Positions 7,666 to 27,495 of a stretch of 34,736 nt of DNA are shown piece after piece. The notes beneath the pieces are model-generated. The model made no database searches, had not been told where the DNA came from, and saw nothing but the letters and a program-made list of their open reading frames with translations. Made by a program: the position numbers and the translations under genes. Numbering within the stretch: the first letter of the stretch is position 1; every line of letters begins with the position of its first letter. This DNA comes from a virus (taxonomy: Duplodnaviria; Heunggongvirae; Uroviricota; Caudoviricetes): IMG/VR virus record IMGVR_UViG_2734482783_000005; one strand, given 5' to 3'.

Positions 7666-8965
7666 TTACACTGGTGTGTTCAGCAAATCGTTAACGGCAT
7701 CAGATGCCGGGTTACCTGCAGCCAGTGGTGCCGGTGCCCCCTGCATCAGACGATCCAGCGCAGTGTCACTGCGCGCCTGTGCACTCTGTGGTGCAGCTGC
7801 CAGAATGCGGCGGGCCGTTTCCACGGTCATACCGGGGGTTTCGGCCAGCACACGTGCCTGTTCTTCTCGTCCGTGAGCTTCCTCACAGTTGAGGATCCCC
7901 ATAATGCGGCTGTTTTCTGCCGCAACCGCAGCGGTGATCTGCGCGTTCACGTCCGGCTGCGCCGCGCTGGCGTTTTCGCCCTCCGTCGCTTGCACCACGT
8001 CAGTAACGTCAGCCTGCGAAGCAGTGGTTGAAACAGTTGTTGATTGAGTCTCTTTGGTCATTCGCCCTCCTGAGAGACGGGATTTACGTGCATCCAGTGC
8101 ATCACGCATAACGGTGATCGCATCGGTGCTGTTGACAAGTTCATCAGCCAGTCCGGCATCAATGGCCTCCTGACCGCTGTACACTGCAGCCTCGGTATCC
8201 AGCACAGCCTGCACGGACAGGCCGGTATATGCCGACACCTTCTGCGCAAACATCCGGCGGGTTGCATCCATCCGGGACTGCAGTGTCTCCCGGACATCAC
8301 CCGGTAGATGGCTGTAGGGGTTGCCATCCACCTTATGGCTGCCGCTGTAAATCAGCGTGATTTCCACGCCCTGTTTCTCCAGCGCAGCGCCGTAATTACT
8401 GTGAGCCATCATGACGCCGATGGAGCCTGTCCGGGCGGTCTGCGTGACCAGACGCCGGGAGGCGGCGCTGGCAAGCAGCTGACCTGCACTGCAGTTCATG
8501 TCGTTGGCCAGCGCCCATACCGGCTTTATGTCACGCACACGGGCGATGATGTCAGCACAGTCAAATGCTCCCGCCACCATCCCGCCCGGTGTGTCCATAT
8601 CGAGCAGAATGCCGTCCACCATCGGATCGCTGGCAGCCTGTTGCAGACGGGCGATAATGCCGTTGTAACCGGTCATCCCCGAATACGGCTGCAGCGCCCG
8701 CGTCCGGCTGACCAGCGTGCCGGACACCGGCAGCACGGCGATGCCGTTCATGACCTGATAACTGCGGGCCTGTCGTGGTCCGTCATCATCAACGGATAAC
8801 GCCAGCGCCGCGGGTGCCTCTCCGGCAGTCAGGCTGTCGCCGGACACCGCATCCGTCAGGCGGCTGATCCCAAGCTGGCCTGCAAGCGCACAAAAGAAAA
8901 CCCGCGCATAGGCGGGTTCAAGCATCAGCGGCTCATTAAAGGCCATACTGGCAATATGCGGGAGA

Positions 8966-8985
<20 letters not shown>
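7666..8985 (-). CDS. C: Capsid assembly protease C (S49/ClpP-fold), 439 aa from a probable GTG start; the scaffold Nu3 is expected as an in-frame internal start in its 3' part
   Basis: The frame reads (V)TAELRNLPHIASMAFNEPLMLEPAYARVFFCALAGQLGISRLTDAVSGDS... with no ATG at the homologous position; counting from that Val gives exactly 439 aa. The track ORF (to 9120) would overlap the portal gene by about 150 nt. Confidence 0.8.
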
Positions 8986-12666
<3,681 letters not shown>

Positions 12667-15817: not shown

Positions 15818-16558
15818 TTACATCTTGCCTTTTTCTAAAAAAAATCTTGATGAATATTCATGGGGGGGAACACCAAAATATCTTCTGAAAACGCTTATAA
15901 AATATGACGCGCTTTCATAACCACATATTTTAGCAACTTTCCCAACAGGATAGAAATTGTAACTTAATAACCTTTCAGCCATCACCATTCGTTCTTCAAG
16001 AATTAATTTGCTAAATGATAAGCCTTCGTGTTTTAGTTTTCTTTTTAACAAACTTTCACTCAGACATAGTCTTGAAGAAATATCACAAAGTCTCCATGCT
16101 GCAGATATGTCCGAGTGAATAATAGCCTTAACTTTGCTTCCTAAACTATTAAGACACCCAAACAAAAAACTCTGAAACATTTTTTCCGAGGATAAAATAG
16201 CAAGACATGCAAATAATATTGAATTTTTAACTACAGCCGTAGTTTCACCATCACAATTCAAGCAACCTATCAAGTTCTTTAACAATGAATAGTCTGTACA
16301 GTTTACTATCAAGTATGCTGAATAAAATCTTCTTACAGAAAAAGGTGAGAGTGTATTGTTTTTAAAGAAGTCATTAACTGTTTTCTCTTCAATATCCACG
16401 ATCATTATATTATCTTTATTTGAAGAAAAGAAAACTTTTAAATTGTATTCTATAGCAACAACACTTCCTTTTTTTAGAGAGATTTTTTCTTTACCAAGCC
16501 GGATATCAAACGAGTTCAAAACCAAAATGATAGAACATATGCATGGCATATCATCCAC
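15818..16558 (-). CDS. AraC/XylS-family transcriptional regulator (cargo gene)
   Basis: 246-aa ORF with C-terminal AraC-type HTH (...KVAKICGYESASYFISVFRRYFGVPPHEYSSRF); the sequence is visibly AT-rich compared with flanking phage genes; start codon uncertain. Confidence 0.8.
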   Translation of the reverse strand: MDDMPCICSIILVLNSFDIRLGKEKISLKKGSVVAIEYNLKVFFSSNKDNIMIVDIEEKTVNDFFKNNTLSPFSVRRFYSAYLIVNCTDYSLLKNLIGCLNCDGETTAVVKNSILFACLAILSSEKMFQSFLFGCLNSLGSKVKAIIHSDISAAWRLCDISSRLCLSESLLKRKLKHEGLSFSKLILEERMVMAERLLSYNFYPVGKVAKICGYESASYFISVFRRYFGVPPHEYSSRFFLEKGKM

Positions 16559-16867
16559 CTGACATAATTAGATTTGAGTTAAGTAAGTATAGGTGGAAAT
16601 ATTAAAATTGCCATATTTTCAATGAGAAAAATCTCATTACATCATCATGAACTTTGATATTTTCTTTAAAATATTTATGTAATACTAGATTAAACAGAAC
16701 TATTTTTGGCTTGCTTGATTATTAATCATTAATTAACATATTAACATTACCTTAAGCATGAACCGAATTTTTTTACAAACTGTACAACTATAGATATCAT
16801 AGTGAAGTTTTTACGATTGTAAACATTCTCTAAGGAGAAAATCATCTTGTTGGTGCATTCCAAACGC

Positions 16868-17827
16868 CTAGTTCACCAAGAGTCTTAGAGCCAGTTCATC
16901 AGGATAGGGGTGGAAGTAATTCTGTATAAGCAAATAATCATCAGGATACTCTGCCAAGTAATGCTTCAGCAAAGTTAATGGCGCAAGAAGAGGTAGCGTG
17001 CCAGCTCGATAGTTAAGTATAACATCGCTCAACTCTTTACGCTGACGTGTATTTAAGCAGTTACTAAAATATCCCTGTATATGCATCAGCACATTCGTGT
17101 GATTTTTACGTGATGCAGGTTTTCTGAGAATCGCCATCAGCTTCTCACGATACACCTCAAAGTATGATTCAAGGTCTGCCCACTCATGTATTGCAGCCAC
17201 AAATGGCCCCATCTCTTTATAACCGGCCTGGCTATGCGCCAACAACTGAAGCTTATAACGGCTATGAAAAGCTAATAATTCCCTTCTTGATAATTTCGCT
17301 TTATAAAGATGATTGAGCTCATGTAAAGCAAATACTCTTTCAACAAAGTTTTCACGAAGCACTGGATCATGTAGTCGCCCATCCTCTTCAACCGGTAGCC
17401 AGGAAAACCTTTCCATCAACGTGCTCGTAAATAGTCCCACTCCATCTTTACGACCACGATTACCATTTTCATCATATACACGCACGCGTTCCATACCACA
17501 GCTAGGAGATTTTGCACAAACCACAAATCCCGATACATCCTTTAATTTGTCAAGATAAGAACGACTAAACTCTGTCATTTTCTCTGTAACATCCTCATTC
17601 TGGTCGTGGCTGAAACACATCCGTATATTTCCTTGCGCCGAGCGAACAAGACGTAGAGCAGGACGCGGAACTGGAAGCCCTATAGCCATTTCCGGACATA
17701 CTGGTTTGAATGTTACCCATTCCAGTAATTTGTCCATTAAAAAGCTAGCTCTTTTGTGACCACCATCAAAACGGACAGAAGAACCGGCCAAACAACCACT
17801 GATCCCAACGACAGGTTTTTTTATCAT
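16868..17827 (-). CDS. DUF523 (TudS-type [4Fe-4S] desulfidase) fused to DUF1722; RudS-like thiouridine desulfidase candidate (319 aa)
   Basis: N-terminus MIKKPVVGISGCLAGSSVRFDGGHKRASF has the DUF523 signature (G-x-S-x-C-L-x-G...VR-x-DGGHK); further Cys at VCPEM and CAKSPSCGMERV; the C-terminal half resembles YbgA/DUF1722. Confidence 0.7.
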   Translation of the reverse strand: MIKKPVVGISGCLAGSSVRFDGGHKRASFLMDKLLEWVTFKPVCPEMAIGLPVPRPALRLVRSAQGNIRMCFSHDQNEDVTEKMTEFSRSYLDKLKDVSGFVVCAKSPSCGMERVRVYDENGNRGRKDGVGLFTSTLMERFSWLPVEEDGRLHDPVLRENFVERVFALHELNHLYKAKLSRRELLAFHSRYKLQLLAHSQAGYKEMGPFVAAIHEWADLESYFEVYREKLMAILRKPASRKNHTNVLMHIQGYFSNCLNTRQRKELSDVILNYRAGTLPLLAPLTLLKHYLAEYPDDYLLIQNYFHPYPDELALRLLVN

Positions 17828-18019
17828 TGCCTACCCCTTGACTAATTCATTAACAGGTTAACAGTGTAGTACACGACCTAAACTGCCTTTCTGCCGTCAT
17901 CACTGACAATTTTTTTGTTATGGACTATTCCTAATATAGTAGGAAAGTTCTTTAAGTGATCGGTAGTAATCATCTATCTTTAATACTTACTCTCAACTAT
18001 CAAAAGTACAGGATATATT

Positions 18020-18544
18020 ATGAAGTTATGGCCTGTGTTGACTGGCATTGCACTCTCTTTCACTCTGATAGCATGTAAGGCCCCGACACCACCTAAAGGT
18101 GTGCAGCCGATTACAAATTTTGACACCAACCGCTACCTCGGAAAATGGTATGAAATAGCTCGGCTTGAGAACCGATTTGAACGTGGTCTGGAACAGGTCA
18201 GCGCCACTTATGGGAAACGGAACGACGGAGGGATTAGTGTACTTAATCGTGGATATGACCCAACGAAAAACAAATGGAGCGAGAGCGAAGGTAAAGCATA
18301 CTTTACAGGAGATAATACAACTGCAGCGTTGAAGGTTTCGTTTTTTGGCCCCTTCTATGGTGGCTATAATGTAATCAAACTGGATGATGAGTATAAGTAT
18401 GCTCTTGTCAGTGGTCCGAACAGAGAATACCTATGGATTCTGGCACGGACTCCAACTATTCCAGATAATGTAAAAGCAGACTATGTGCGTACTGCTCAAA
18501 AATTGGGATTCAATGTCAATGAACTATTATGGGTCAAACAATAA
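18020..18544 (+). CDS. Bacterial lipocalin Blc-like outer-membrane lipoprotein (174 aa)
   Basis: MKLWPVLTGIALSFTLIACKAPTPPKGVQPITNFDTNRYLGKWYEIARLENRFERGLEQVSATYGKRNDGGISVLNRGYDP...KAYFTGDNTTAALKVSFFGPFYGGYNVIKLDDEYKYALVSGPNREYLWILARTPTI; lipobox LIAC and the lipocalin signature G-x-W-Y-E-I-A-R, closely resembling E. coli Blc. Confidence 0.85.
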   Translation: MKLWPVLTGIALSFTLIACKAPTPPKGVQPITNFDTNRYLGKWYEIARLENRFERGLEQVSATYGKRNDGGISVLNRGYDPTKNKWSESEGKAYFTGDNTTAALKVSFFGPFYGGYNVIKLDDEYKYALVSGPNREYLWILARTPTIPDNVKADYVRTAQKLGFNVNELLWVKQ

Positions 18545-21716: not shown

Positions 21717-22414
21717 ACACTTGCTCCTTTCAGTCCGAACTTAGCTTTGATTTCTGCGATCTTCGCCAGAGCCTGTGCGCGATTTAGAGGTCTACCGCCC
21801 ATGACAGGAAGTTGTTTTACTGGTTCAGGGATCGCCTCACCACGGTTAATTCTCGCAGTCATATGGACAAGCTCATCTGCGGCCTTACGGCGTAATTCCG
21901 CATCAGTAAGCGCATTGGCCCGCATGTTCTGATACAGGTTGGTAACCAGCCAGTAGTGCGCATTTGATTTCCACGGATAAGACTCCGCATCCGGATACAG
22001 GCCTCGCTTCCGGCAATACTCGTAAACCATATCAACCAGCTCGCTGACGTTTGGCAGTCCGGCGATAACGGATGCTTCTTCCCGGCACCATGCAACAAAC
22101 TGCCCGGGTGATGGCAGAAATGGTCGATTCTGCCGACGGGCTACGCGCATTCCTGCGTTAACCTGTTCCATTGTGGTGATCCCGTTTTCCCGGAAAGCCA
22201 GAACCCACTGGCGGCGGATTTCGTTCAGTTCGTTCTGGTCACGGTTAGCCAGGCTCGCCGGGAAAGTTGCCAGTAACTGGCTGAACACACCGTTGATGAT
22301 CTGCGCTACCTGCTGTACCTGCGGCTTTTCGTCGTACTGTTCCGGCATGTTGTTGGCGATCCGACGCATCTGCTCACGGTCAAAGTTAACCATCTGTGCG
22401 GCGATGTTTTTCAT
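21713..22414 (-). CDS. P: Replication protein P (DnaB helicase loader), 233 aa
   Basis: MKNIAAQMVNFDREQMRRIANNMPEQYDEKPQVQQVAQIINGVFSQLLATFPASLANRDQNELNEIRRQWVLAFRENGITTMEQVNAGMRVARRQNRPFLPSPGQFVAWCREEA...; lambda P. Confidence 0.95.
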   Translation of the reverse strand: MKNIAAQMVNFDREQMRRIANNMPEQYDEKPQVQQVAQIINGVFSQLLATFPASLANRDQNELNEIRRQWVLAFRENGITTMEQVNAGMRVARRQNRPFLPSPGQFVAWCREEASVIAGLPNVSELVDMVYEYCRKRGLYPDAESYPWKSNAHYWLVTNLYQNMRANALTDAELRRKAADELVHMTARINRGEAIPEPVKQLPVMGGRPLNRAQALAKIAEIKAKFGLKGASV

Positions 22415-23310
22415 AGATCCACCCCGTAAATCCAGTCTGTGTTTGTCAGGTCGAGTTTTGGTTTGCTGGCTGTCACGACTGCCTGTTGCTTGTTACGGTT
22501 GATTTCGAGCTGGGTCCACTTGTCGCGGAGTTTGGCCGGACTCAGCACGTTACCGGACCAGAAGTTGTCCTGGCAGGCCCAGCGGAAAAGCACACACATA
22601 TCGCGGTGGTTACGTCCGTCACGTTCACGCATCAGGCGGATATCGTTAGCCCACCCAGCAAAATTCGGTTTTCTGGCTGATGGCGCGATGGTCTTCACCA
22701 TGTCAAACATCCACTCTGCGGCGGTCAGGTCTTCTGCTGTCCCCCACTTGCTGCCGCTCTGAATTGCAGCATCCGGTTTCACCACAGAAAGATCGTTTTC
22801 TGGCTGGTCAGAGGATTCGCCAGAATTCTCTGACGAATAATCTTTTCTTTTTTCTTTTGTAATAGTGTCTTTTGTGTCCCCCTGTTTTGAGGGATAGCAA
22901 TCCCCCAATTTGAGGGATGTTTTATCCCTCGTTTTAGGGGATTTTCCCTCGTTTTGAGGGATGCACCATTCTGAGATGTTTTTATTTGGTCCAAACATGC
23001 CGCCTTGCTGCTTGATAATATTCATTCTGACGAGTTCTAACTTGGCTTCATTGCACCGTTTGACAGGTAACTTTGTAATCTCGCTAAGTTGAGAATCGGT
23101 GATTCTGTCCATTGGTTTATTCCACCCATAGGTTTTACGCAGAATGGCAAGCAGCACTTTAAACTGTCGCTTGGTCAGATCTGCGCCCGAATAAGCCTCA
23201 AGCAGCATATTTGATAGTCTGGCGTAACCATCATCGAGATCTGCCACATTACGCTCCTGTCCGGCAAAGTTACCTCTGCCGAAGTTGAGTATTTTTGCTG
23301 TATTTGTCAT
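22411..23310 (-). CDS. O: Replication initiator O (299 aa)
   Basis: MTNTAKILNFGRGNFAGQERNVADLDDGYARLSNMLLEAYSGADLTKRQFKVLLAILRKTYGWNKPMDRITDSQLSEITKLPVKRCNEAKLELVRMNIIKQQGGMFGPNKNISEWCIPQNEGKSPKTRDKTSLKLGDCYPS...; lambda O, with ori inside the gene. Confidence 0.95.
   Translation of the reverse strand: MTNTAKILNFGRGNFAGQERNVADLDDGYARLSNMLLEAYSGADLTKRQFKVLLAILRKTYGWNKPMDRITDSQLSEITKLPVKRCNEAKLELVRMNIIKQQGGMFGPNKNISEWCIPQNEGKSPKTRDKTSLKLGDCYPSKQGDTKDTITKEKRKDYSSENSGESSDQPENDLSVVKPDAAIQSGSKWGTAEDLTAAEWMFDMVKTIAPSARKPNFAGWANDIRLMRERDGRNHRDMCVLFRWACQDNFWSGNVLSPAKLRDKWTQLEINRNKQQAVVTASKPKLDLTNTDWIYGVDL
22875..22962. repeat. ori-lambda iterons: four tandem O-binding repeats, with an adjacent AT-rich unwinding region at about 22810..22870
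   Basis: Four tandem ~20-bp repeats containing TCCC(T/C)C..GAGGGA-type cores (for example tccctcgttttgaggga and atccctcgttttaggggat), then an A/T-rich stretch containing ttttcttttttcttttgtaatag. Confidence 0.85.
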
Positions 23311-23342: not shown

Positions 23343-23639
23343 TCAGAATTGCATATCAATTTGCTTAGAGTCCCCGGCGGCCACCGGGGATTTTTTCTTT
23401 GTGATTCCATCAAGCGCATACTTAAAAGCCCTACTAATCGGACTGATGTCTGATGCCATTCCGAAAGCACACAAGACTGAAGCAATAAATCTCCAGTCCG
23501 TTCTGCTTATCTTCGATTCATGACAGCCAATCATCTTTGCCAGACCGCGCTGAGTAAGCGTTGACAGGTTGATAAGTAAATCTGTTTCTGCGCGATCAAC
23601 GTCGCGCTGTGATAGTTTGCTGTAACTTGTTCGTTCCAT
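23343..23639 (-). CDS. cII: CII-like transcriptional activator (98 aa)
   Basis: MERTSYSKLSQRDVDRAETDLLINLSTLTQRGLAKMIGCHESKISRTDWRFIASVLCAFGMASDISPISRAFKYALDGITKKKSPVAAGDSKQIDMQF; same size and architecture as lambda CII, including a similar C-terminal tail, but diverged sequence. Confidence 0.75.
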   Translation of the reverse strand: MERTSYSKLSQRDVDRAETDLLINLSTLTQRGLAKMIGCHESKISRTDWRFIASVLCAFGMASDISPISRAFKYALDGITKKKSPVAAGDSKQIDMQF

Positions 23640-23780: not shown

Positions 23781-23996
23781 TTAAGCGGCTTTGTGTTCCG
23801 GCGGGAACACGTCATCAAGACTTACTTTTGCGCCTAACTTATTTAGACACGCAACAATAGCACGGCATGTTTTAAGGTCTGGGAAGCGACGACCAGATTC
23901 CCAATGTCCGATAGCTCCCTGTGTGCATCCAACTGCCTTAGCAAGTGTTGTTTGAGAGATATTCAGTGACTCTCGATATTTTCGTAGGTTGCTCAT
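23781..23996 (-). CDS. cro: Cro-like repressor (XRE-family HTH, about 71 aa)
   Basis: MSNLRKYRESLNISQTTLAKAVGCTQGAIGHWESGRRFPDLKTCRAIVACLNKLGAKVSLDDVFPPEHKAA; divergent from cI; GGAGGG Shine-Dalgarno before the chosen start. The track ORF has a 23-codon upstream extension that I consider unlikely to be translated. Confidence 0.75.
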   Translation of the reverse strand: MSNLRKYRESLNISQTTLAKAVGCTQGAIGHWESGRRFPDLKTCRAIVACLNKLGAKVSLDDVFPPEHKAA

Positions 23997-24106
23997 ATGC
24001 CCTCCATAGTAACCTCGAATAAAAAATACAATATGTACTTTCCAAATACAAGCAAAAATACACATTGTGCATGGATGGTTCCAGTACAGAGCGTAATAAT
24101 AAGGAC
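23997..24106. promoter_or_regulatory. Divergent immunity control region (OR with PR/PRM) between cro and cI
   Basis: 110-bp AT-rich intergenic region containing several short palindromes (TACAATATGTA at 24027..24037; CACATTGTG) and repeated AAATACA motifs; operators are inferred by position only. Confidence 0.5.
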
Positions 24107-24766
24107 ATGAAAATGAAATGGTATGAACTGGCTAGATCCAGAATGAAAGAGCTCGGCATAACTCAAGAGAAGTTAGCCGAAGAGCTAGGTATGACGCAGG
24201 GTGGGATTGGACACTGGTTGCGCGGATCTCGTCATCCATCTCTTAGTGATATTGGTGTGGTGTTTAAATACCTTGGTATTGATAACATATCATTCAACCA
24301 CGACGGGACATTTTCACCTGTTGGCGAATACTCATCGGCCCCAGTTAAAAAACAATATGAGTACCCTGTATTTTCTCATGTTCAGGCTGGGATGTTCTCT
24401 CCAGAACTCAGAACCTTTACCAAAGGCGATGCGGAGAGATTGGTAAGCACAACCAAAAAAGCCAGTGACTCTGCATTCTGGCTTGAGGTTGAAGGTAACT
24501 CAATGACCGCACCAACAGGTTCCAAACCCAGTTTTCCTGACGGGATGTTAATTCTGGTTGACCCTGAGCAAGCTGTTGAGCCCGGCGATTTCTGCATAGC
24601 CAGACTTGGTGGTGATGAATTTACCTTCAAGAAACTGATCAGGGATAGCGGTCAGGTGTTTCTACAGCCACTAAACCCACAATACCCAATGATCCCATGC
24701 AATGAGAGTTGTTCCGTTGTGGGGAAAGTTATCGCTAGTCAGTGGCCTGAAGAGACGTTTGGGTAA
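24107..24766 (+). CDS. cI: CI prophage repressor: non-lambda N-terminal HTH domain fused to a lambda-type C-terminal LexA-like (S24) autocleavage/dimerisation domain
   Basis: N-terminus [45 protein letters not shown] is unlike lambda CI; the C-terminus ...[135 protein letters not shown] matches the lambda CI C-terminal domain. AAGGA Shine-Dalgarno before the chosen start. Confidence 0.9.
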
Positions 24767-24838
24767 TTCCAATTGTGATTAATAAAAAACCGATAGTGCA
24801 ACATGTTATTGTAAATTGTTGATATAGCAAGGTATCAC

Positions 24839-25741
24839 ATGAGCCAAAATCTTGATTCAACACTAGAAACATACATTTCTTGGCAGTTAGAGCAATTTAA
24901 AAATAACTTTTTCCCAAGCTGCGACGTCATAGCGTACTACGGTGGTATCTTTCCATGGTCAAAAGAAGTTTACCAACCAAAACTTGAGGCTATTGGGGAG
25001 ATGGCTAACAGTCGTACCAATAGATTTCTAGTTATTATACTCAATACAAATGGTGGCTCTGTTGAGTCTGTGGAAAAAATGGTAGAAATTACAAGGCATT
25101 TCTATCAAGAGGTATATTTTATCATTCCAGATATGGCCATGTCGGCAGGCACAATATGGTGTATGTCTGGAGATAAAATTTACATGAACTATGCTTCTTC
25201 ATTAGGCCCCATTGACCCTCAAGTGCAATCCTCTGACGGTAAATGGGTTCCTGCTTTGGGATACCTTGATAAAGTTGAAGAAATGATTACTAAATCCAGA
25301 GAAGGAACCATTACCCAAGCTGAACTAATGATGCTTAGTCAGTTAGATCTTGCGCACTTAAGGAGATACGAGCAAGCCAGAGAGCTATCAATAGACTTGC
25401 TTAAGAAGTGGCTTGTAGAGTATAAATTCAGAGAGTGGACGGTTCATCAAGGTAACACAAAACGAGGAAAGCTAGTTTCCAAGAGGGAAAAAGAAGCAAG
25501 AGCTAAAATGATCGCTACCGCTCTTAGTGACAACGGAAAGTGGCATTCTCACGGAAGAACGATAGGAATAAATACTCTTATCAATGACTTAAGAATTAAA
25601 GTAGAAGACTTTACATACGACAAAGATTTTAGCATGGCGTTAAAAAATCTGCACAACGTCATTAATGAATACATGTATAAGACAAATCGACAGGTTCTTG
25701 TTCTGTCTTCATTCCCCTTCTCAGAACAAAGTGAGTCATAA
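24839..25741 (+). CDS. ClpP/SppA-fold (S49/SDH-like) serine-peptidase-domain protein, 300 aa, in the cI-downstream slot
   Basis: ...RFLVIILNTNGGSVESVEKMVEITRHFYQEVYFIIPDMAMSAGTIWCMSGDKIYMNYASSLGPIDPQ... aligns by eye with the ClpP core (LNSPGGSV ... GQAASMGA), placing a candidate nucleophile Ser in MSAGT. AT-rich; C-terminal half Lys/Glu-rich and helical-looking; no TM segment seen. Confidence 0.7.
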   Translation: MSQNLDSTLETYISWQLEQFKNNFFPSCDVIAYYGGIFPWSKEVYQPKLEAIGEMANSRTNRFLVIILNTNGGSVESVEKMVEITRHFYQEVYFIIPDMAMSAGTIWCMSGDKIYMNYASSLGPIDPQVQSSDGKWVPALGYLDKVEEMITKSREGTITQAELMMLSQLDLAHLRRYEQARELSIDLLKKWLVEYKFREWTVHQGNTKRGKLVSKREKEARAKMIATALSDNGKWHSHGRTIGINTLINDLRIKVEDFTYDKDFSMALKNLHNVINEYMYKTNRQVLVLSSFPFSEQSES

Positions 25742-25912
25742 ATGAGCAAAGACAAATCACTGACACAGCAAGTGGCAGAAATACTTAGCAAGCAAAAAGT
25801 TAGCGAGCAAGGTAAAATGATTCAATCATTAAAGAACAACGGATTGATCAACAAGCCTGTTTTTACTTTGGCTTATGGACCTGATACTACAGTCTGCCAA
25901 ATGCACCAATAA
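25742..25912 (+). CDS. Small hypothetical protein (56 aa) coupled to the upstream peptidase-like gene
   Basis: MSKDKSLTQQVAEILSKQKVSEQGKMIQSLKNNGLINKPVFTLAYGPDTTVCQMHQ; its ATG directly follows the upstream TAA (TAAATG); below the 60-aa cutoff of the ORF track; followed by an intrinsic terminator. Confidence 0.45.
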   Translation: MSKDKSLTQQVAEILSKQKVSEQGKMIQSLKNNGLINKPVFTLAYGPDTTVCQMHQ

Positions 25913-25922
25913 CAAAACCCCA

Positions 25923-25948
25923 CCCGGCCTCAGCGCCGGGTTTTCTTT
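25923..25948 (+). terminator. Intrinsic terminator ending the cI-cargo operon (tImm-equivalent)
   Basis: Hairpin CCCGGC-ctcagc-GCCGGG (25923..25940) followed by TTTTCTTT (25941..25948). Confidence 0.7.
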
Positions 25949-26133
25949 GCCTCACGCCCCCACCTAAAGACACATAACCAAATGTATTTATTGAAAAATA
26001 AATAGATACAACTCACTAAACCACGCAATTCTGATCTCTCCTTACATCGCCGAGGCGATACACCCACGCTAAAAAACAACACTATTAAATACAAAGTGTT
26101 ATAAAAAATCACCCCATTTTAGAACAAATCGTA

Positions 26134-26162
26134 TTGACCAAATAAAGTACATATCGTACTAT
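26134..26162 (+). promoter_or_regulatory. Candidate PL promoter (-35 TTGACC, 17-nt spacer, -10 TACTAT) with an overlapping palindrome AGTAC-N5-GTACT
   Basis: TTGACC at 26134..26139 and TACTAT at 26157..26162, upstream of the nutL-like site and N; the palindrome at 26146..26160 sits in the spacer. Confidence 0.5.
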
Positions 26163-26207
26163 TTAACCGTCAGCAGGACGCTGGAAGCCAAACGGAACAG
26201 ACTGGCA

Positions 26208-26253
26208 GGCTCTTTAAACAACGTCGAACTCTCGACTACGTGGCTGAAAAGCC
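26208..26253 (+). promoter_or_regulatory. nutL-like site: boxA (GCTCTTTAA) plus two hairpins, the second of boxB type with GAAA(A) loop
   Basis: ggctctttaaacaacg-TCGAactcTCGA-ctacgt-GGCTgaaaAGCC; collinear with the nutR-like site, with compensatory stem changes. Confidence 0.55.
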
Positions 26254-26352
26254 AGATCACCCAACCACATGAGCTGTGGGATGCAATGCCGAAGCAACCG
26301 TCTCAGGAGGAGCTTCGAGATTGCATCGCCAAAGTTTATTCGGGAGGAATCT

Positions 26353-26625
26353 ATGTCCAGAAAAACAGAATTTAAAGGCACCGCAGCTTCTCGCCGTAGA
26401 GCTCGTCGCGCAAATCTGCAAAGTCAGGAGTCGATTAGCTCCGACAAGCTACACAGGCCAACCCCCTCACGAGTGGTCTTGCAATGCAAGCGCAAACCAG
26501 CAATGAGAGCAGAAGTAATAACACTGACAACGTTGACCAGAAAATATGAAGGTTCAACTTGTCTTCCGAACGTAGCTCTTTACGCGGCAGGCTACCGGAA
26601 ATCCAAACAACTGACAGCAAGATGA
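26353..26625 (+). CDS. N: N-like transcription antiterminator (90 aa) with arginine-rich motif
   Basis: MSRKTEFKGTAASRRRARRANLQSQESISSDKLHRPTPSRVVLQCKRKP...; Arg-rich N-terminal motif, GGAGG Shine-Dalgarno, position immediately downstream of PL/nutL. The track ORF starts 28 codons upstream at a less likely ATG. Confidence 0.7.
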   Translation: MSRKTEFKGTAASRRRARRANLQSQESISSDKLHRPTPSRVVLQCKRKPAMRAEVITLTTLTRKYEGSTCLPNVALYAAGYRKSKQLTAR

Positions 26626-26954: not shown

Positions 26955-27013
26955 TGGTGGCCTTTATTTTTTGGCCGTAAATAATTTCATGCTTATTACA
27001 ATCAAGGGGATAT

Positions 27014-27463
27014 ATGGAAGAACAAGCAAACAAGATTCTCGTAGAACTACTGCAAAAAGCCAGCAATGGAATAGACACGGCTGTTTCATTCAGCCAGGCG
27101 CAGATTCCTGATGTTGTTCATCAGTTGCTGCTATGGAATATGGTTGACAGTCTGATTAAAACATTAATAGCCATTCTAACAATCCCACTGGTTTTCTGGT
27201 TTATGAAGAAGCAGTGCCGAAGAGTTGAGACAGGTAAAATCGGTGATGAAGGATATTCATGGGAGAAGGGAAATCCCAAATACAGGCCGACAATGGTTTG
27301 GGATAGCAAAGGTGATATTAATCTTCTTATCATGCCATTAGTTGGAGTTTTGGCTCTGTGGGGGATTTTTATTATTAGTGCAGTAACCAATATGACATGG
27401 TTAAAAATTTTGCTGGCTCCAAAGCTTTACCTTATCGAATATGCAGCATCATTGGTTAAGTAA
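27014..27463 (+). CDS. Membrane protein, SieB-like superinfection exclusion candidate (149 aa)
   Basis: MEEQANKILVELLQKASNGIDTAVSFSQAQIPDVVHQLLLWNMVDSLIKTLIAILTIPLVFWFMKK... with two or three predicted TM helices; occupies the lambda sieB/git position between ral and Ea10. Confidence 0.5.
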   Translation: MEEQANKILVELLQKASNGIDTAVSFSQAQIPDVVHQLLLWNMVDSLIKTLIAILTIPLVFWFMKKQCRRVETGKIGDEGYSWEKGNPKYRPTMVWDSKGDINLLIMPLVGVLALWGIFIISAVTNMTWLKILLAPKLYLIEYAASLVK

Positions 27464-27467
27464 TTTC

Positions 27468-27495
27468 AGGCCGCATAGTCGGCCTTTATTTTTGG
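27468..27495 (+). terminator. Intrinsic terminator (tL-type) after the SieB-like gene
   Basis: Hairpin AGGCCG-catagt-CGGCCT followed by TTTATTTTT. Confidence 0.6.

Follow-up and report, generated by a model that had tools for sequence, protein, structure and literature searches.

A mobile two-gene cassette encoding an SDH-type ClpP-fold protease and a small partner in the cI-N slot of a lambdoid Escherichia coli prophage: a candidate protease-based exclusion or toxin-antitoxin-like module

We examined a two-gene cassette in the virus record IMGVR_UViG_2734482783_000005, a stretch of 34,736 nucleotides (nt) that we refer to as the window and that is a lambdoid Escherichia coli prophage. The cassette lies behind the repressor gene cI and consists of gene 1, encoding a protein of 300 amino acids (aa), and gene 2, encoding a protein of 56 aa; coordinates of all features are collected in Table 1. 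An earlier note on this DNA had described both open reading frames (ORFs), the TAA-ATG junction between them, and the motifs LNTNGGSVESV, PDMAMSAGT, and PIDPQ in the gene 1 product, and we found all of these as described. The cassette is also AT rich, as the note had observed (38% GC, whereas the window as a whole has 49% and cI with the left flank 46%). Its further claim that the slot between cI and N holds something other than rexAB agrees with our comparisons, in which the flanks match those of phages carrying other cargo. Given the gene order, together with a PL-like promoter and an N-like gene 3' of the cassette, the region has the lambda cI-rexAB-PL-N layout. The window cI shares approximately 96 to 98% DNA identity with the cI genes of phages E212, 2B8, ev207, and Stx2-1717. 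In the identical sequence annotated by the Prokaryotic Genome Annotation Pipeline (PGAP), the pair is named "SDH family Clp fold serine proteinase" and "hypothetical protein." Coordinates were carried over from the 100%-matching genome, NZ_CM129869, around the immunity region only; distant window genes were annotated directly.

Gene 1 scored above the gathering threshold of Pfam PF01972 (SDH_protease) over residues 64 to 199 (41 bits against a threshold of 31.3, E = 1.6e-10), and its product has the features of this family, namely a ClpP-like fold with the nucleophile Ser at a strand-helix elbow. Of the profile models that the earlier note had proposed to search, the SDH-type model matched, and the CLP_protease and Peptidase_S49 models did not. 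The score against ClpP (PF00574) was 17.5 bits compared to a threshold of 20.2, the SppA/S49 model TIGR00706 reached 20.2 bits compared to a cutoff of 155, and there was no Peptidase_S49 match. The NfeD1b_N model likewise stayed below its cutoff (28.9 versus 40 bits), as did the NCBIfam equivalog NF047768, Clp_like_SDH (54.5 versus 250 bits), whose match covered residues 60 to 149 only. Because PF01972 covers only residues 64 to 199 and the NF047768 score is far below cutoff, we regard gene 1 as a distinct subfamily, which has a C-terminal half of its own, with the motif WHSHGR, and an obligatory small partner. In PHROGs, gene 1 belongs to phrog_11747, annotated as function unknown.

The family profile places S102 in the column of the catalytic Ser of both ClpP and 1510-N, a column where the S97A mutant chain reads Ala. 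The PF01972 score and the S102 alignment thus bear out the earlier proposal of a ClpP/S49-fold serine peptidase with the Ser of MSAGT as the nucleophile. All homologues at 48 to 89% identity have S102, H238, and R240 (the last two within WHSHGR); conservation at D126 is at least 90%. ClpP has a Ser-His-Asp triad with the His in MIHQP, whereas gene 1 has PIDPQ at that position, as do 28 of 29 aligned homologues, and D126 stands at the place of the ClpP His. With D126 there and H238 downstream, the putative catalytic residues would follow the order Ser, Asp, His, which is presumably what the SDH family name stands for. The earlier note had taken PIDPQ as an oddity that might mean a different chemistry; the motif is present, but it is the family norm, and the SDH-type residue pattern largely resolves the difference. 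We found no hydrophobic segment in the gene 1 product. Together, these data identify gene 1 as encoding, by prediction from its sequence, a soluble ClpP-fold serine protease of the SDH type. The ratio of nonsynonymous to synonymous substitution rates (dN/dS) in comparison with a 94%-identical E. coli copy is 0.045, indicating strong purifying selection. We found no experimental work in the literature that assigns a function to the SDH branch of the ClpP superfamily.

The ATG of gene 2 abuts the TAA of gene 1. Its product matched phrog_28875 (E = 2e-30), also annotated as function unknown; it has no Pfam domain, and a match to ArgR-N was below threshold. An AlphaFold2 (AF2) model with 51 homologues has helices at residues 7 to 17 and 22 to 32, followed by a low-confidence tail. 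Conservation is focused on residues 30 to 50, which comprise the end of helix 2 and the tail, where L30, G34, K38, F/Y41, and L43 are conserved, the last four within the tail motif G34...K38-P-x-F41-x-L43-A. This conserved motif is followed by a variable C-terminus, with P-x-x-D-T-I-G-K/R after L43 in most phyla and A-Y-G-P in Enterobacterales. The dN/dS of gene 2 is approximately 0.3, estimated from few sites. Given the dN/dS values and the presence of gene 2 homologues 3' of the protease across phyla, we conclude that both genes are real. The partner is a fast-evolving protein of approximately 56 to 80 aa in which conservation is confined to a short linear motif within the disordered tail. 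Because the conserved motif lies in a tail modeled as disordered in isolation, this stretch may fold on, or be cut by, a partner.

A scan of 100,044 species genomes gave 487 matching stretches, of which we surveyed the best 80, counting a locus as informative if sequence was present downstream of the protease. A small ORF lay 3' of the protease in 79 of 79 informative genome loci; these ORFs encode 42 to 91 aa (mostly 55 to 80), and in nearly all loci they start within -27 to +45 nt of the protease stop codon. The small ORF was also present in 17 of 17 further contig loci, including four in which the gene caller had missed it; of 72 viral loci, 71 had it, and the remaining one was at a contig end. 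The small-protein hidden Markov model missed half of the viral loci, and presence there was judged by ORF inspection. Overall, every informative locus examined, approximately 190 in total, has a small downstream ORF, and the pair occurs in Proteobacteria, Bacteroidota, Acidobacteriota, Verrucomicrobiota, Firmicutes, Spirochaetes, and one archaeal metagenome-assembled genome (MAG). The constant co-presence of the small gene, suggested as a check in the earlier note, was therefore confirmed in all three sets of loci. Protease and partner distances correlate (Spearman 0.55), and in a Mantel test 0 of 999 permutations gave a correlation as high. The enzyme is much better conserved, with pairwise identities averaging 56%, compared to 19% for the partner. 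We detected no natural protease-partner fusions among 95 small-protein profile matches, which were 51 to 129 aa long and without a Pfam domain. Like type II toxin-antitoxin systems, the pair is a tightly linked two-gene operon with a sporadic and mobile distribution.

In three E. coli genomes (FHI_NMBU_10 [L099, 4001 to 4234], 48, and JNEC-KY176), a deletion removed the protease, leaving the last 12 nt of gene 1 and an intact 56-aa ORF, and the orphan small gene lies directly after a different cI. The FHI_NMBU_10-type locus resembles a deletion derivative of the prophage type seen in E. coli 2015C-3121 (L104), with the same HicAB downstream. In E. coli CP52E (L109, 1823 to 3781), the IS3-family element ISEc52 lies in the 5' end of the protease gene, and the small gene is intact. 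The converse, in which the protease is kept and the small gene is lost, was never seen. Two independent losses of the protease with the small gene kept weakly suggest a toxin-antitoxin-like asymmetry.

The 487 stretches among the 100,044 species genomes represent many phyla and approximately 0.5% of species, with a sporadic distribution. Homologues number approximately 4,300 overall. In five Flavobacteriaceae species belonging to different genera, the sequence in common is the pair alone (1.1 to 1.2 kb, 89 to 95% DNA identity), with unrelated flanks, and similar sharing of the bare pair was observed between other distant taxa. The pair therefore moves as a unit. We also observed near-identical cassettes in MAGs of different phyla or orders, with 87% DNA identity between Bacteroidetes (L029) and Limnohabitans (L043) and 93% between a Firmicutes MAG (L066) and Acholeplasmatales (L075); these reflect either very recent transfer or mis-binned contigs. 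In Shewanella, the pair is located between the SAICAR synthase gene and an OmpA-like gene. The pair is rare in E. coli, where it was found in 17 of 5,426 complete genomes. An 88%-identical pair outside any prophage (L116/L117, 8001 to 9075) is flanked by a BapA-type adhesin/type I secretion operon and by the gene for a 2,789-aa polyvalent LPD/MuF_C protein. The 111-kb plasmid pSM107_MCR, named for mcr, carries the same lambdoid immunity and early region (NZ_CP130669.1, 31444 to 44555), with a cassette that is 99.9% identical.

For viral contexts, we considered 61 nonredundant loci and two ORFs upstream of the protease in each, 121 ORFs in all. These ORFs included 28 Peptidase_S24, 34 HTH_3, and 12 Phage_CI_repr matches, plus Cro, P22_Cro, and YdaS types, and the protease is adjacent to and co-oriented with a repressor in about two-thirds of the viral loci. 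The pair lies directly behind the repressor in at least 11 Enterobacterales prophage backgrounds (Kluyvera, Klebsiella aerogenes, K. quasipneumoniae, Cronobacter, Edwardsiella, Proteus, three Enterobacter prophages, and two E. coli immunity types), among which the repressor and replication modules vary. Recurrence next to prophage repressors, which the earlier note had proposed to survey, is thus a property of the prophage copies, but the family also occurs in diverse bacterial genomes in housekeeping surroundings. Among 50,697 deposited phage genomes there was no close homologue, only seven matches at <31% identity. Distant SDH-like proteases (26 to 30% identity; L105 to L107) are accessory genes in other phages: one adjoins a HicAB pair in Porphyromonas phages, one is gp31 of Gordonia phage BeeGee, just after the tail genes, and one follows the late regulator C in a Mu-like Shewanella phage.

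Backbone homology with phages 2B8, ev207, and Stx2-1717, whose cI genes share approximately 97% DNA identity with that of the window, breaks at position 24767, one base beyond the cI stop codon, and restarts at 25922, where the terminator stem begins. In phages with the same cI, the slot holds a NYN-domain protein, a DUF1828 pair, or a 173-aa hypothetical protein; the DUF1828 pair has a weak to moderate match to the PADLOC candidate PDC-M24 (E = 5e-4 and 7e-10). With conserved flanks and alternative cargo, the cassette is cargo of the cI-N hot spot of lambdoid phages. This interval is a mosaic hot spot that includes rexAB and bstA, both abortive-infection systems (PMC8585504). The terminator consists of a stem at 25922 to 25941 followed by a T-run (-14.2 kcal/mol, z = -2.6), and its region is the sole part of the query matched in more than 75 E. 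coli genomes. Because the terminator is common to phages with different cargo and homology restarts at 25922, we assign it to the phage backbone. The clean intrinsic terminator that the earlier note placed at the end of the pair is therefore real, but it is not the cassette's own.

In the leader that separates gene 1 from cI, sequence prediction detected neither a promoter nor a terminator on the + strand, and read-through from the repressor promoter is therefore the simplest expression model. We infer that the cassette would be transcribed in the lysogen from PRM, whose transcript is presumed to begin at cI; the co-transcription with cI put forward in the earlier note is compatible with the leader sequence. 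In E. coli 2015C-3121 (L104, 2063 to 2505), the cassette lies within a prophage of another immunity type, preceded by the same leader and by a 21-nt remnant of the 3' end of the window's cI. This remnant suggests a footprint of transfer by recombination. The same prophage also has a 53-aa ORF, encoding a secreted or membrane-anchored product, 5' of the cassette.

The cassette can be compared with several known systems. In its score above threshold, ClpP-like fold, aligned Ser, and putative Ser-Asp-His order, gene 1 resembles PF01972 SDH_protease. NfeD/1510-N (STOPP), the closest relative of solved structure by profile (E = 7e-5), shares with gene 1 the ClpP fold and the aligned catalytic Ser, and 1510-N is encoded beside the protein it cleaves. 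However, 1510-N has a Ser-Lys dyad and is membrane anchored, whereas gene 1 lacks a hydrophobic segment and has an invariant His, and gene 2 is unrelated to stomatin, the partner of 1510-N. The cassette shares its slot, strand, and presumed PRM-driven lysogen expression with lambda RexAB and with BstA of BTP1, but it has no sequence or domain similarity to either; RexAB consists of a sensor and a membrane protein, whereas the cassette encodes a soluble protease and a small soluble protein. By analogy, gene 1 may be likened to Lit of prophage e14, CalpL-CalpT, and the gasdermin-protease pairs, in that a prophage-borne or mobile protease is proposed to be inactive until infection. Those proteases have metalloprotease, Lon, caspase, or subtilisin folds, unlike gene 1, and no ClpP-fold effector is represented among the PADLOC models. 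Like many type II antitoxins, the gene 2 product is predicted to have a folded N-terminal part and a disordered tail that may bind its partner.

Fillol-Salom and colleagues are said to have validated, in 2022, cargo of enterobacterial phage-inducible chromosomal islands as anti-phage by plaque assays. The DefenseFinder system FS_HP_SDH_sah reportedly comes from that work and combines a hypothetical protein with an SDH_sah protein, SDH_sah being the old name of PF01972. We presume, as somewhat probable, that FS_HP_SDH_sah belongs to the same family as this pair; the view in the earlier note that the pair fits no named defense family may thus be mistaken. FS_HP_SDH_sah is reported as cargo of phage-inducible islands, whereas the copies of the pair examined here are in prophage repressor slots or solitary in chromosomes, with none in such an island.

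Our favored reading, in which we have moderate confidence, is that the locus is a self-contained mobile two-gene cassette carried as lysogen-expressed cargo and acting as a protease-based exclusion or abortive-infection switch. In the lysogen, transcription from the repressor promoter would extend through genes 1 and 2, which would be translationally coupled at the TAA-ATG junction. The tail of the partner would occupy the substrate groove of the protease, as either a pseudosubstrate lock or the primary substrate, and the pair would behave as a toxin-antitoxin-type protease switch. An infecting phage would upset the balance, upon which the protease would cleave host or phage targets. Exclusion or abortive infection would follow and would shield the lysogen population, as rexAB, bstA, and stk do at the same locus. 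A defense or abortive-infection function is plausible from the position of the cassette, and from its position only. More tentatively, and with considerable doubt, we suggest that the pair represents a widespread class of autonomously mobile conflict modules, repeatedly captured by temperate phages behind their repressors as a lysogen-expressed exclusion or abortive-infection device, in which a ClpP-fold SDH protease would be the effector and the disordered tail of a partner of approximately 60 aa its pseudosubstrate lock, and whose mechanism would be distinct from those of characterized defense effectors.

Several observations count against the favored reading. Neither protein matched any PADLOC-DB v2 profile at E values up to 1, and we found no literature linking this SDH family to phages or defense. 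In 73 diverse genomes, the 279 neighboring ORFs belong mostly to single housekeeping families, with only four to six HTH_3 matches, and only approximately 3 to 5 of the 73 loci adjoin restriction-modification genes, without clear enrichment in defense islands. The asymmetry in gene loss is drawn from only two protease-loss events, and the protease is a fivefold larger mutational target than its partner. Position 126 is Val in a Proteus cluster. In the E. coli 2015C-3121 prophage, cI and the cassette are separated by a terminator-like hairpin; PRM read-through is therefore not universal, and expression of that copy is possibly independent of PRM.

One alternative, which we consider unlikely, is that the pair consists of a regulatory protease and its dedicated substrate and serves host or prophage physiology, with the tail processed into an active fragment or peptide, or with a role in quality control. 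NfeD/1510-N cleaves its operon partner stomatin, and the profile relationship of gene 1 to 1510-N would fit this alternative, as would the partner's conserved motif with a variable C-terminus and the many copies in chromosomal settings that do not look mobile. The sporadic distribution and the recent cross-genus transfer of the bare pair oppose a housekeeping role, however, and we found no linked export, modification, or receptor genes in the neighborhoods examined.

It is quite improbable that the pair is a purely selfish toxin-antitoxin-like addiction module without an anti-phage role, in which the small protein would be a labile inhibitor of a toxic protease. Its effect would be to stabilize whichever element or locus contains it. 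Such a module would account for a minimal mobile unit of 1.1 to 1.2 kb at unrelated chromosomal sites among housekeeping genes, for the strict co-presence of a fast-evolving partner with a conserved enzyme, and for the existence of orphan small genes but not of orphan proteases. The strong preference of the pair, in prophages, for the slot downstream of the repressor is better explained by a benefit to the lysogen. Because many toxin-antitoxin modules double as abortive-infection systems, this alternative overlaps the exclusion or abortive-infection reading that we favor.

An accessory protease of the lysis-lysogeny switch, which would cleave a repressor or antirepressor by analogy with ImmA, the repressor-processing protease that acts on ImmR, is very unlikely. 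The frequent adjacency and co-orientation of protease and repressor in viral loci is in its favor, and some of the adjacent repressors, as in Klebsiella, have no S24 domain. The window cI, though, has an S24 autocleavage domain of its own, the same cI occurs in phages carrying other cargo, most genomic copies have no repressor nearby (HTH_3 in 4 of 143 neighbors), and the obligatory partner is a small protein rather than a repressor. Finally, a virion head-maturation protease can be dismissed, since the window carries its own Peptidase_S49 head protease; the weak matches of gene 1 to ClpP-related head-maturation models (NF045542, 2e-5; phrog_53, 1.4e-6) are far under cutoffs (24.6 versus 120 bits), gene 1 lies in the immunity region outside the head cluster, and most of its homologues are not in phages.

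Elsewhere in the window, PGAP annotates a frameshifted hypothetical pseudogene in the PL-N interval of the identical E. coli sequence (window positions 26153 to 26375), and a long + strand ORF at 26269 to 26625 contains the N frame. A second variable segment, at 26972 to 27474 in the early-left operon, is absent from 2B8 and Stx2-1717, although its flanks are common to them. It contains an ORF (27014 to 27463, 149 aa) that matched nothing in Pfam or PADLOC and whose product includes a single, strongly hydrophobic stretch; the segment may be another accessory cargo piece. Between the lysis genes and the late-regulator side, the AT-rich block at 15818 to 18544 (30 to 42% GC) looks like bacterial-type cargo inside the prophage.

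Table 1. Features of the cassette, the immunity region, and other parts of the window
Feature	Position	Strand	Basis or remark
Variable cargo segment (cassette plus leader)	24768-25921	+	Backbone homology breaks; 38% GC
Leader between cI and gene 1, 72 nt	24767-24838	+	Travels with the cassette
Gene 1, predicted SDH-type ClpP-fold serine protease, cytoplasmic, 300 aa	24839-25741	+	S102, D126, H238, R240
Gene 2, 56-aa partner, phrog_28875	25742-25912	+	Two short helices and C-terminal tail predicted disordered
Intrinsic terminator, tIMM-like	25922-25949	+	Phage backbone; closes the cI operon
cI repressor, HTH_3 and Peptidase_S24	24071-24766	+	Pfam E = 1.3e-28 and 2.1e-10
cro-like helix-turn-helix (HTH) gene, divergent from cI	23781-23996	-	ORF; PGAP on identical region: HTH regulator
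cII	23343-23639	-	Immunity region
O	22411-23310	-	Immunity region
PL-like promoter, TTGACC-17-TACTAT	26134-26162	+	Promoter prediction
N antiterminator gene, N-like, Arg-rich	26353-26625	+	Translation and PGAP name
Head-maturation protease, Peptidase_S49	7666-9120		E = 4.7e-43; between portal and capsid genes
AraC-family regulator	15818-16558	-	AT-rich block
2-Thiouracil desulfurase/DUF1722 protein	16868-17827	-	AT-rich block
Lipocalin	18020-18544	+	AT-rich block
GGDEF-domain (diguanylate cyclase) gene	31403-32704	-	Approximately 29-37% GC block just inside integrase end
Integrase	33573-34736		

The protease family name and the cI-N hot spot were already known; what is new here is the strict pairing, the tail motif, the mobility of the bare cassette, and the preference for the repressor slot. 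Should the pair prove to be FS_HP_SDH_sah, our analysis would still add the tail as a likely control element, along with the strict pairing and the repressor-slot preference in prophages. In temperate phages, rexAB, bstA, and stk were all discovered in the slot downstream of the repressor. A conserved pair of protease and partner in this slot, spread across phyla as a bare 1.1-kb unit as well, offers a compact and directly testable candidate for protease-driven immunity or addiction. We regard the cassette as a good, well-delimited candidate for a protease-based exclusion or toxin-antitoxin-like module, which, if true, would give the SDH branch of the ClpP superfamily its first biological role.

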